A DNA stretch of 64,000 bases from Escherichia coli (GTDB lineage Bacteria > Pseudomonadota > Gammaproteobacteria > Enterobacterales > Enterobacteriaceae). The notes beneath the pieces are model-generated. The model saw only the letters and a list, made by a program, of their open reading frames with translations, was not told where the DNA came from and made no database searches. How positions within the stretch are numbered: the stretch's first letter is position 1; every line of letters begins with the position of its first letter. Where the stretch lies: assembly GCF_003018255.1 (NCBI RefSeq), contig NZ_CP027440.1. One strand, 5' to 3'. A program made the position numbers and the translations under genes. Below, piece by piece: positions 30,369-35,250 of the stretch.

Positions 30369-31421
30369 TTAAGCCTGCGGCTGAGTTACAACGTCTTTGA
30401 TGCCTTTAACTTCGATCTCTACGCGACGATCCGGAGCCAGGCAATCGATCAGTGCAGCACGCTGTTTCACGTTGTCACAGGTGTTGCCAGTAACCGGGTT
30501 GGATTCGCCCATACCACGTGCGGAGATTTTGTCTGCCGGGATACCTTTAGAGATCAGGTAATCAACAACGGACTGAGCACGACGCTCGGACAGAGCCTGG
30601 TTATAAGCGTCAGAACCGATGCGGTCAGTGTAACCCAGAACAACTACGGAACCGTCTTTCGGATCCAGGTTGCTCAGCTGGCTGTACAGCTGATCCAGAG
30701 CAGCCTGACCTTCCGGTTTCAGGGTTGCTTTGTTGAAGGTGAACAGAACGTCAGACTTCAGAGTGAAGTGCTTGGTCTGTACTTCCGGTGCCGGAGCTGG
30801 AGCCGGAGCAACTACTGGAGCTGCTTCGCCCTGACCGAAACGGTAGGAAACACCCAGGCTCAGCATGCCGTTGTCCGGACGAGTGCCGATGGTGTGTGCA
30901 TCACCGATGTTGTTGGTCCACTGGTATTCCAGACGGGTAGCGATTTCAGGAGTGATCGCATACTCAACACCGCCAGCGAAGACCGGAGAAACGCCGGTGT
31001 CGTGGTCTTTAAAGGATGCGCCACCAGGTACGTTAGCCTTGGTGTCTGCACGCCATACCATACCACCCAGACGAGTGTAGATGTCCAGATCGTCAGTGAT
31101 TGGGTAACCCAGTTTAGCGGTCAGCTGAACGCCCTGAGCTTTGTATGCGCCGTTGATGTTGTCGCCTTTGTACGGCATACGACCTAACCAGTCGTAACCC
31201 ATTTCAAAGCCAACATACGGGTTAACCTGGTAACCACCAAAAGCACCTGCACCCAGTTGGTTTTCGTGGGTCGGACCATTGTTAGGAATAAAACCAGTGT
31301 CATGGTACTGGGACCAGCCCAGTTTAGCACCAGTGTACCAGGTGTTATCTTTCGGAGCGGCCTGCGCTACGGTAGCGAAACCAGCCAGTGCCACTGCAAT
31401 CGCGATAGCTGTCTTTTTCAT
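30369..31421 (-). CDS. ompA: outer membrane protein A (variant surface-loop allele)
   Basis: ORF track 30369..31508; start at ATG giving [21 protein letters not shown]; APAPAPAP hinge and OmpA-like C-terminal domain. Confidence 0.95.
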
Positions 31422-31776
31422 TTTTTGCGCCTCGTTATCATCCAAAATACGCCATGAATATCTCCAACGAGATAACACGGTTAAATCCTTCACCGGGGAT
31501 CTGCTCAATATTAACTCTACCGATATCTTCGGCTTATGCCGAGCACCCCTGGCGATGTAAAGTCTACAACGTAGTTGAAAACTTACAAGTGTGAACTCCG
31601 TCAGGCATATGAAAAAAAAGTCTTGTATAAGGTACGTTTAATCTTTTTTGTCAGCGACAATTTACAGAAGAAAATCGCGGAAACCGCTTCAGACAAGCCT
31701 CCGCAAGGAAAATTAGTCACGACTGAAAGCATTGGCTGGGCGACAAAAAAAGTTCCAGGATTAATCCTAAATTTAC

Positions 31777-32286
31777 TTAATGATACAAATTAGAGTGAAT
31801 TTTTAGCCCGGAAAGTTGTCTCGTTGCGTGAGAGGATGCGCTTACCGGACGCATAATAAACCCCATAGCGTTACCTTCATTTGCCGCATCAACAAGTTCA
31901 GCATGCTCTTCTGCAGTCAAATCATCTGCCAACCAACCGATCACCACGCTGTAATTGCCCGTGCGTAAAGCGCGAACCATTGACTCCACGGTGTGGCAAG
32001 GGGAGAGCTGGCTAATCTGCATTACTTTCGTTAAGGGTAGCCCAGATGCCTGAACCCATTCGCGACTCAGTTTTTGTTGCGGTGTTAACCAGAGTTGCCA
32101 GCGCGATTGCTGACCGAGTTGCTGTAACAATGGCAACAGTAGAAGTTGCGTCATCATGGGCTGATCTTCGCGATAGACAACTTCACTGATAAGCCCGGCT
32201 GTAGTGTTTTCCGTAGAGACACGCGCAATTTTACTTGCTGCGGATGAGAACGACGAAGAACGATGTGCATAGCCTGAAGTGTACAT
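31777..32286 (-). CDS. sulA: SOS cell division inhibitor SulA
   Basis: ORF track 31777..32292; start giving [20 protein letters not shown]. Confidence 0.95.
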
Positions 32287-32308
32287 AATCAATCCAGCCC
32301 CTGTGAGT

Positions 32309-32328
32309 TACTGTATGAATGTACAGTA
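32309..32328. promoter_or_regulatory. LexA operator (SOS box) of sulA
   Basis: taCTGTatgaatgtACAGta, a near-perfect CTGT-N8-ACAG palindrome 23 bp upstream of sulA start. Confidence 0.85.
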
Positions 32329-32504
32329 CATCCAGTGACGACAAAGATCAACTCTATTTTCGGAAAGAGCCTCGCAAATTTTGTCGTTGGTGACGGGAAA
32401 ACATAAATTAATCTTGCCCCTTAAGAATAAGTTGCCTATTTTCGTAGTTAACGGATCCGTTAATGTGAATCATTCTTTTATGTTATGATTTTAAAAGGAA
32501 TTTT

Positions 32505-33134
32505 ATGAAAAGCCTCTCCTATAAGCGGATCTATAAATCACAAGAATACCTGGCAACGTTGGGCACAATTGAATACCGATCATTGTTTGGTAGTTACAGC
32601 CTGACCGTTGACGACACGGTGTTTGCGATGGTTTCTGATGGTGAGTTGTATCTTCGGGCTTGTGAGCAAAGTGCACAGTACTGTGTAAAACATCCGCCTG
32701 TCTGGCTGACATATAAAAAGTGTGGCCGATCCGTTACCCTCAATTACTATCGGGTTGATGAAAGTCTATGGCGAAATCAACTGAAGCTGGTGCGTCTGTC
32801 GAAATATTCTCTCGATGCAGCGCTGAAAGAGAAAAGCACGCGCAATACCCGGGAAAGACTGAAAGATTTGCCCAATATGTCTTTTCATCTGGAAGCGATT
32901 CTCGGGGAGGTGGGGATTAAGGATGTACGGGCGTTACGTATACTTGGGGCAAAAATGTGTTGGTTGCGACTGCGGCAGCAAAACAGTCTGGTGACAGAAA
33001 AGATTCTGTTTATGCTTGAAGGGGCCATTATCGGTATTCATGAAGCTGCGCTCCCGGTGGCACGCCGCCAGGAGCTTGCAGAATGGGCTGACTCTCTTAC
33101 GCCAAAACAGGAGTTTCCTGCGGAACTTGAGTAA
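32505..33134 (+). CDS. sxy: competence regulator Sxy/TfoX
   Basis: 209 aa; MKSLSYKRIYKSQEYLATLGTIEYRSLFGSYSL. Confidence 0.92.
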   Translation: MKSLSYKRIYKSQEYLATLGTIEYRSLFGSYSLTVDDTVFAMVSDGELYLRACEQSAQYCVKHPPVWLTYKKCGRSVTLNYYRVDESLWRNQLKLVRLSKYSLDAALKEKSTRNTRERLKDLPNMSFHLEAILGEVGIKDVRALRILGAKMCWLRLRQQNSLVTEKILFMLEGAIIGIHEAALPVARRQELAEWADSLTPKQEFPAELE

Positions 33135-35250
33135 TCTGGCGTTGCAGACGACCAATCTCTGGCAGTAATGCAATCAATAACCCAACTTGTTGTACGACCA
33201 GAGGTTCTTTGCTGTCTGCCCGTGGTTCAAGTTGCTGCATCCGCTGTTTCAGGCCAGCTAATGCCTGATTGACGCGTTCTTCATCAGCAGGTTGATGATG
33301 TAGCGCGTCATCAACATAGCAAACTGCGTCATCAAGAAACGCCAGAATTTCAGGATTAGTTAACTGCTCCCGGTGAGCACCGAGGGCTGAGATATAGCTG
33401 GTAAACGTATGGTTAAGGCACAGCAACCGAAACGCGGCTTCGCGAATTTGCGGGGTAACGTTCGGTTCGCTGGACATATTTGATACCACCGACGCCAGTT
33501 CAGCATCACGGTTGTGTGCATCGCGGCGGGCAATACGATACGCCAGACGGTTATCACGCCCCTGATGGTATTGTTCCAGTATGGCATCGAGATACCGGCA
33601 GTTGGCCTCTGTGGCGCGTTCGAGCATTCGCGGCAGATTGCGAAACTTCCAGTCAGGCCAGATGTAGCTCACTGCCGCCCACGCAATGGCACAACCAATC
33701 AGCGTATCGATTACGCGAGGTAACGCCACTTCAAAACCTTCACCCAGCAAGTTGAAACACAGTAGCACCAAAAGTGTGATGAACATCGTTGCATGGGCGT
33801 ATTGCACGTTACGGAAGGCAAAAAAGAGCACGCCGGTAATAACCAGCAGCACCAGCTGCCCTTCCAGTGATGGCACAAACCACAGCACAGGAATACCAAT
33901 TGCGATACCTACCAGCGTACCAATAATCCTTAACTTCAGGCGGTGGCGCGTGGCGTTATAGTTTGGCTGGCAGACAAACAAACTTGTCAGCAAGATCCAA
34001 TACCCGTGATGCATTCCGGTTATCTGAATGATGGCGTAGCCGAAGCACAACACCAGCGACATTCTTACCGCATGACGGAAGAGGGCGGATTCCGGCGTGA
34101 AGTGACGGCTAAGACGCAGCCAGATATCACTCAATCCGTGCGGGCTGTCATCAGCGAGCTCATTTTCGTCATTATTATGGGGCAGTGCCTGGGCCTGTTC
34201 TGATTCAATTGTTGCCAGTTGGGCATCAATGGCACGTAAATTGTTCAGTAAAAATCCCAGTGTTTTGAGTAAATCAGCAGGAGCGCCGTTATCGCGCATC
34301 CGCTCCAGCGCAGCATCAATATGCGTAAAAGCGCGCTCAAAATGCGGATCATGTTGATAAGGCTGACGCAGCAAAATACAGCGTGACAGTTGCTGGCACG
34401 CCTGGCCCTGCATCGACATCAGCCGCTGAAAACGGAACAGCACGTCGCTGTGGCGAAAATGTTCACGCAATGTTTGATATTGAATATGAGAAGAGCTGGC
34501 ACGCTCGTGAATATCCTGTGCGACAAAGTAATAATGCAGTGTGCGACGCGTTCCTCGTTGACCACGATCGCCACGTAAGCGGGTCAGCAGCGAGAGTTTC
34601 GTCTGATTCAATGTCGCCATCAGCTGACCGTTGGCGAGAGCCAAATCGTACAGCGGTGCCTGGCTTTCATCTTCAATATCAGGATCAAACATGCGCGACT
34701 TGAGCTCAAGATAACGCGCCAGTTGTTCATAGCAACGCGCCAGGTTGTCCTGCAGCGGGCGGACCGGGAACAGCAGATGACCAATAAGTGTCAGGACGTT
34801 GTACCAGACGGCACCGGCCAGAAGATACATCGGCTGCTGATACCAGTGCTCATACAGTGATGTTCCCAACATAGTGTAAATGGCGATCAGCAATGCACCG
34901 AAGGCAATTGTTGCATAGCGTTGACCCAGACCGCCGAGCAAAATGAAGCCGCTGGTAGAGAGCGTTAAGCCAATCGCAAATAGCCAGGGCCAGGGAAACA
35001 GCAATTCTACTGAGGCCGAGGCGATAAAAAAGCAGAACAGCGTAATGATGAGGTTACGCAAACGTCCCGCCAGTCGGTCATCGAGATCGGTCAGCGCCGC
35101 TGCCACCATCCCAAGCGTCAGCGGAATCGTCAGTTTTACATCACCCAGCCACCACGGAAACGCTGTGGTTCCACAAAGCGCAATAAAAATACGCGCGTAA
35201 TACAGCCAGGCGCTGTTCCAGGTATAGCGTTTGAGCAAAGGACTTAGCAT
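33097..35250 (-). CDS. yccS: inner membrane protein YccS (putative efflux/FUSC-like transporter)
   Basis: ORF track 33097..35259 (720 aa); two in-frame ATGs 9 nt apart, so start is ambiguous (35250 or 35259). Confidence 0.88.
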   Translation of the reverse strand: MLSPLLKRYTWNSAWLYYARIFIALCGTTAFPWWLGDVKLTIPLTLGMVAAALTDLDDRLAGRLRNLIITLFCFFIASASVELLFPWPWLFAIGLTLSTSGFILLGGLGQRYATIAFGALLIAIYTMLGTSLYEHWYQQPMYLLAGAVWYNVLTLIGHLLFPVRPLQDNLARCYEQLARYLELKSRMFDPDIEDESQAPLYDLALANGQLMATLNQTKLSLLTRLRGDRGQRGTRRTLHYYFVAQDIHERASSSHIQYQTLREHFRHSDVLFRFQRLMSMQGQACQQLSRCILLRQPYQHDPHFERAFTHIDAALERMRDNGAPADLLKTLGFLLNNLRAIDAQLATIESEQAQALPHNNDENELADDSPHGLSDIWLRLSRHFTPESALFRHAVRMSLVLCFGYAIIQITGMHHGYWILLTSLFVCQPNYNATRHRLKLRIIGTLVGIAIGIPVLWFVPSLEGQLVLLVITGVLFFAFRNVQYAHATMFITLLVLLCFNLLGEGFEVALPRVIDTLIGCAIAWAAVSYIWPDWKFRNLPRMLERATEANCRYLDAILEQYHQGRDNRLAYRIARRDAHNRDAELASVVSNMSSEPNVTPQIREAAFRLLCLNHTFTSYISALGAHREQLTNPEILAFLDDAVCYVDDALHHQPADEERVNQALAGLKQRMQQLEPRADSKEPLVVQQVGLLIALLPEIGRLQRQITQVPQETPVLA

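Follow-up and report, generated by a model that had tools for sequence, protein, structure and literature searches.

The 218-bp spacer that separates sulA from sxy in Escherichia coli very probably functions as two back-to-back sigma-70 promoters, each under its own regulator, with LexA acting at the sulA promoter (PsulA) and cAMP-CRP together with Sxy acting at the sxy promoter (Psxy). The divergent gene pair and all six control elements of the spacer are conserved at nearly fixed spacing across 86 Enterobacterales loci. Element positions, start sites, spacing and conservation come from public data and from the sequence of a 64-kb window (the whole stretch of DNA analyzed, 64,000 nucleotides, in whose numbering positions are given here), while LexA repression and the CRP and Sxy dependence of the identical K-12 sequence are taken from the literature. 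The biology is not new: the sulA SOS box is textbook material and the CRP-S site of sxy has already been published. What the locus offers is a clean, fully mapped example of two apparently independently regulated divergent promoters within 218 bp.

The window is E. coli chromosomal DNA with the gene order ompA-sulA-sxy-yccS, as given by the RefSeq annotation of identical DNA. Several complete genomes match positions 31700 to 33200 with 100% identity, and 5425 of 5426 complete E. coli genomes contain the region. Both the list of open reading frames and RefSeq place sulA, which encodes the 169-aa SOS-induced cell division inhibitor, on the minus strand at 31777 to 32286 (ATG at 32286), and sxy (tfoX), which encodes the 209-aa coactivator of the CRP-S regulon, on the plus strand at 32505 to 33134. 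The two genes are divergent, with the spacer at 32287 to 32504, and in annotated genomes ompA lies downstream of sulA. A preliminary description of this DNA had named both genes, set the sxy start 218 bp away on the opposite strand, and placed an SOS box 23 bp from the sulA start; the names agree with annotated genomes, and the distances and coordinates are correct. Its remark that the control signals are packed into about 200 bp also stands, the two transcription start sites being 134 bp apart.

Two features of the neighboring genes were noted in passing. The 3' ends of sxy (plus strand) and yccS (minus strand) are convergent and overlap by 38 bp (33097 to 33134). OmpA (30372 to 31421, minus strand) has 350 aa here and 346 aa in K-12. 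Four residues are inserted and several others substituted at three variable sites, one of which corresponds to K-12 NVYGKN; the window has an allelic variant of ompA.

For comparison across the order, relatives were collected via the 5' end of the neighboring ompA, so that the tested sites themselves played no part in the choice. The loci span Escherichia, Salmonella, Citrobacter, Klebsiella, Enterobacter, Pantoea, Erwinia, Yersinia, Serratia, Photorhabdus, Proteus, Providencia, Morganella and Hafnia, and sulA and sxy are divergent in all 88 that hold both genes. Order-wide counts of elements refer to the 86 non-reference loci, and identities to 36 Enterobacteriaceae spacers, in which the DNA between the elements has an identity of 0.51 to 0.64.

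The LexA operator, or SOS box, occupies 32309 to 32328 and reads TACTGTATGAATGTACAGTA, or TACTGTACATTCATACAGTA in the orientation of sulA. Between it and the sulA ATG lie 22 bp, which puts its closer edge 23 bp away from the A of that codon. Taken by itself, the core CTGT-N8-ACAG is at chance level in 64 kb (one found against 0.75 expected, and at least one in 54 of 100 shuffles), and we therefore used the full 20-mer instead. By that measure, TACTGTATGAATGTACAGTA is the sole site in the 64 kb within three mismatches of TACTG(TA)5CAGTA, and 100 shuffles yielded none. All three mismatches fall in the central (TA)n, leaving the TACTGT and ACAGTA arms perfect and the CTG-N10-CAG core intact. The core is also intact, at the same distance from sulA, in 84 of the 86 loci, and within the Enterobacteriaceae the arms have identities of 1.00 and 0.89 and the center one of 0.72.

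The promoter on which this operator lies was placed from its mapped start site. In supplementary file 2 of Kim et al. (2012), sulA has a start at 1020172(-) of U00096.2 and a 30-nt 5' untranslated region, and the upstream sequence is printed, which puts +1 at 32316 and the sulA leader at 32287 to 32316 on the minus strand. The offset from U00096.2 to NC_000913.3 is 777, as confirmed by Kim's ompA coordinates, and with it all five listed starts fall on an A. On the minus strand, the -10 hexamer TACTGT (32323 to 32328, -12 to -7) is invariant, and is separated by 17 bp from the -35 hexamer TTGATC (32346 to 32351, -35 to -30). The latter is found at the same offset in 80 of the 86 loci, and the block AAAGATCAAC at this position has a mean identity of 1.00 in the 36 Enterobacteriaceae spacers. 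A scan for the sigma-70 consensus picked up neither promoter of the spacer because their hexamers are weak, and both were assigned from mapped start sites together with the conservation footprint. An essentially invariant GATC (Dam) site lies at 32346 to 32349, within the sulA -35 hexamer. Elsewhere in the locus, Cappable-seq lists two weak plus-strand starts, at 31844 and 31865 (scores of about 2.4), both in antisense orientation to the 3' portion of sulA; the one at 31865 is preceded by a CATAAT -10 element in the sigma-70 promoter scan.

Spanning -12 to +8 of PsulA, the operator thus overlaps the core promoter and takes in both the -10 hexamer and the mapped start, in a classical occlusion geometry. 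The frequency of the 16-mer core, which is about what is expected in 64 kb, is what might suggest a chance palindrome with no regulatory role. That reading is exceedingly improbable, and is in effect already refuted by conservation, since the arms are kept across genera while the center varies; moreover, the full 20-mer is unmatched in the shuffles, the site sits on the -10 and +1 of a mapped promoter, and sulA is an established LexA target. In the literature, sulA is described as a late, tightly LexA-repressed SOS promoter, and its K-12 operator variant has been used as a LexA probe. The site at 32309 to 32328 is therefore confirmed as the sulA LexA operator, as the preliminary description had proposed, and as a textbook SOS box it was already known. 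In the model, a LexA dimer on the 20-bp operator would occlude the -10 element and the start site of PsulA until DNA damage leads to RecA-stimulated cleavage of LexA and frees the promoter. SulA would then be made and would block FtsZ ring formation.

Strain variation touches this side of the spacer alone. Compared with K-12, the spacer is identical at 215 of 218 positions, the three differences (32318, 32340 and 32353) all being on the sulA side, and from 32354 to the sxy ATG no base differs. Position 32318, at the center of the LexA operator and at -2 of PsulA, is an A in the window and a G in K-12. Among the 5426 complete E. coli genomes, 843 have the operator of the window and 3880 that of K-12, and the position falls in the part of the operator that varies freely among genera. 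The literature on LexA binding and SOS induction refers to the K-12 variant, one central base away from the window operator.

On the sxy side, two independent genome-wide data sets place the +1 at A32450. Kim et al. (2012) list a sxy start at 1020306(+) with 124 reads and a 5' untranslated region of 55 nt, again with the upstream sequence printed, and Cappable-seq, for which our evidence consists of plus-strand starts, has a strong start at the same position, 1020306(+), with a score of 58.6, along with a minor start at 1020352. The supplements of SMRT-Cappable-seq contain no entry for either sulA or sxy. Ahead of this start on the plus strand lie the -35 hexamer TTGCCC (32414 to 32419, -36 to -31) and, after a 17-bp spacer, the -10 hexamer TATTTT (32437 to 32442, -13 to -8), which ends 8 nt upstream of the mapped start. 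Their identities in the Enterobacteriaceae are 0.88 and 0.93, respectively, and the -35 assignment draws on this footprint and on a SELEX survey with the sigma-70 holoenzyme, in which the same two hexamers were named as the sxy promoter (Shimada et al. 2014).

A different start has been published. Sinha and Redfield (2012) state that the sxy start was mapped to a G located 115 bp upstream of the ATG, which corresponds to 32390, and the window does have a G there. Were this the main start, TTGCCC and TATTTT would be elements of the leader RNA, and the CRP-S site described below would overlap the core promoter. We consider this very unlikely. Both genome-wide maps, which agree on -55, give 32450 and nothing near 32390, and no conserved -10 or -35 element precedes 32390. 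In Erwiniaceae the hexamers read TTGAAC and TATCTT at the same positions, nearer to the sigma-70 consensus, which argues for promoter elements rather than RNA motifs, in line with their naming in the SELEX survey. Furthermore, a start at 32390 would put the CRP-S site at -21.5, a repressing position, whereas the published effect is activation. We therefore rejected -115 as the main start and kept the start at -55, which resolves a minor discrepancy among published accounts and gives the CRP-S site a class-I-type distance from +1.

The CRP-S site of Psxy is a 22-mer at 32358 to 32379 whose core, at 32361 to 32376, reads TGCGA-GGCTCT-TTCCG on the minus strand, as identified from the published half-sites, a scan and conservation. 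Its center at 32368.5 corresponds to -81.5 of Psxy and to -52.5 of PsulA. These hexamer and -81.5 assignments are derived from public start-site data and the footprint, and not from the papers on Psxy. According to Sondberg et al. (2019), the TGCGA half is promoter-proximal and conserved and the TTCCG half distal, and activation of Psxy depends on Sxy, CRP, cAMP and AR1, as determined on a K-12 sequence that is identical here. The asymmetry of the E. coli type, with one good and one degenerate half-site, is present in the window, where both halves equal the published ones and TGCGA has the C at position 6 that marks a CRP-S half-site. The primary paper on the sxy CRP-S site is that of Jaskolska and Gerdes (2015).

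Within the spacer, a scan with the E. coli CRP-S core gave a single match with at most one mismatch, against 0.03 expected per 218 bp. Over the whole 64 kb, the core is not enriched (10 matches against 5.8 expected), and the assignment therefore rests on the published mutagenesis and on conservation. No canonical CRP site (TGTGA-N6-TCACA) occurs in the spacer within two mismatches, the best candidate having three, with 0.62 expected, and the symmetric CRP-S core of the Haemophilus influenzae type matches there only with three mismatches, at chance level. The main text of a paper on SELEX with CRP alone does not mention the spacer. The preliminary description had anticipated CRP-type sites on the sxy side and suggested scans for CRP and CRP-S sites. 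The scans with consensus cores bear this out as far as the published CRP-S site of Psxy is concerned, but they revealed no canonical site, and the 22-mer, which starts 6 bp beyond the sulA -35, is on the sulA-proximal side of the spacer and not near the sxy ATG. Both this non-canonical site and sxy autoregulation were thus already known, having been published between 2015 and 2019.

Under the two-promoter model, Psxy would be a weak promoter activated from its asymmetric CRP-S site at -81.5. cAMP-CRP would bind this low-affinity site only with the help of Sxy and, once bound, would contact RNA polymerase in a class-I manner, resulting in positive autoregulation of sxy.

Conservation across the order fits the geometry of this site. 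Of the 86 loci, 79 keep the TCGCA half in position, and in 74 a promoter of the form TTGnnn-17-TAnnnT begins exactly 42 nt after it; in the Enterobacteriaceae the two halves have identities of 0.93 and 0.92 and the N6 center one of 0.64, and between families the distal half varies. One locus, from Pseudocitrobacter faecalis, has a 10-bp deletion between the CRP-S site and the sxy -35, which leaves 32 nt from TCGCA; among 76 loci, no other shows a sizeable change of length there. Since the loss amounts to about one turn of the helix, the site stays on roughly the same face, as a class I face-of-helix constraint predicts.

Other loci depart from the common layout in different ways. In Klebsiella oxytoca NBRC 105695, about 240 bp are inserted at about 77 to 316 of the spacer, precisely in the interval from the sulA -35 to the CRP-S site, and neither promoter is disrupted; a duplicated CTATTTTC flanks the insertion, which has the appearance of a small mobile element and its target-site duplication. 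The distal CRP-S half is replaced in five Serratia loci (L020, L047, L059, L017 and L082), two Yersinia loci (L003 and L069) and one Hafnia locus (L070), where a second TGCGA or TGTGA follows 4 nt after TCGCA, forming the palindrome TCGCAAATTTGCGA in L069. The core promoter in those Serratia and Yersinia loci is TTGGCA-17-TATTTT and is less clear in Hafnia. Their sequences suggest that the CRP-S site has a different architecture in these families.

The 55-nt sxy leader (32450 to 32504, plus strand), which is defined by the two start-site data sets and by conservation, carries a conserved TGATTT block at 32486 to 32491 and the Shine-Dalgarno sequence AAGGA at 32495 to 32499. At its 5' end, TTAACGGATCCGTTAA forms a perfect 16-bp palindrome at 32448 to 32463, from -2 to +14 of Psxy, with a conservation of 0.80 in Enterobacteriaceae. 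Across 40 aligned leaders, 75% of the pairing in the palindrome stem is kept and both partners change in four of the six pairs, with apparently compensatory changes in some genera (GAGG..CCTC and GGTG..CACC). The palindrome could be a 5'-terminal RNA hairpin or, equally, the operator of an unnamed repressor. A second conserved GATC (Dam) site was observed inside it, at 32454 to 32457, or +5 to +8 of the leader.

Farther downstream, the TGATT block is invariant and is located 14 nt upstream of the sxy ATG. It can pair with the region of the start codon, with the Shine-Dalgarno sequence in the loop (32484 to 32507), and the pairing (C/U)AUGAUU:AAUCAUG, which includes the start codon, is 84% kept in the 40 leaders against 30 to 49% when the partner is slid. 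Most genera have a strong form of it (CATGATT/AATCATG), and Escherichia, Salmonella and Citrobacter a weaker one. RNAalifold recovers only its core, at -0.85 kcal/mol and with mostly G-U changes, a single-sequence fold of the E. coli leader is no better than those of shuffled sequences (z = -0.05), and an Rfam search of the leader gave no credible match. We take the evidence for leader pairing and for the palindrome as hints only. A 7-codon upstream open reading frame (ATG at 32485, with its TGA overlapping the sxy ATG) was considered as a conserved feature and rejected, because other genera have ATGATTTAA, with only two codons.

The close packing of the two promoters allows for a reading in which SOS and competence control are coupled through the spacer, such that CRP-Sxy modulates sulA, or polymerase or LexA at PsulA modulates sxy, and competence is linked to division arrest. 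The CRP-S 22-mer is only 6 bp past the sulA -35, and its center at -52.5 is where the alpha-CTDs of a polymerase at PsulA would sit, but this is not a recognized CRP activation position and, to our knowledge, it is outside the established class I and class II activation spacing. The offset of +48 from the LexA box to the CRP-S site is fixed across most Enterobacterales families, and the divergent pairing holds in 88 of 88 loci; such fixed spacing would, however, be expected in any case, given that there is hardly any free DNA between the elements, and the K. oxytoca insertion pries the sulA -35 and the CRP-S site apart with both promoters left intact. In the other direction, the center of the LexA box lies upstream of the sxy start by about 131 bp, a distance too great for LexA to repress sxy directly. 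A literature search for cross-talk among Sxy, sulA and LexA found no relevant report, either of an effect of Sxy on sulA or of one of LexA on sxy. We therefore regard coupling as unlikely, and we found no evidence for a functional link between SOS and competence at this spacer. We infer instead that the two promoters are controlled independently.

If coupling were nonetheless real, E. coli would have a competence-linked division checkpoint like those of Gram-positive bacteria, although nothing that we found supports one. Also improbable, in our judgment, is a broader scheme in which the spacer is a rigid Enterobacterales module, with CRP-Sxy tuning sulA or SOS polymerase traffic tuning sxy, and with the palindrome at Psxy serving as an operator that silences sxy. 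Such a module would hard-wire DNA uptake to the arrest of cell division, and a repressor bound at the palindrome might account for the silence of sxy under laboratory conditions.

Set beside known systems, the two independent promoters proposed here resemble, first of all, their K-12 counterparts. K-12 sulA (sfiA) shares the promoter hexamers, start site and operator position of the window locus and differs within the operator by the G at the equivalent of 32318, where the window has an A. The published CRP-S site of K-12 Psxy (Jaskolska and Gerdes 2015; Sondberg et al. 2019) has the same half-sites, TGCGA proximal and TTCCG distal. The sxy gene of H. influenzae is likewise activated by CRP from an upstream class-I position and has a leader of similar length, 51 nt against 55 nt in E. 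coli. However, the H. influenzae site is a canonical, Sxy-independent CRP site at -61.5, whereas E. coli uses a CRP-S site at -81.5 and autoregulation, and the leader stem of H. influenzae is experimentally supported, while the E. coli leader folds no better than shuffles. In Vibrio, cAMP-CRP directly activates the competence regulator gene tfoX, as it does at Psxy, but the tfoX promoters carry canonical CRP-N sites rather than CRP-S sites. The lac P1 promoter, the archetype of class I, is similar to Psxy in that activation depends on AR1 and CRP binds ahead of the core promoter on the same face of the helix. The lac site is canonical, has high affinity and is centered at -61.5, in contrast to that of sxy, which is two helical turns further upstream and needs Sxy.
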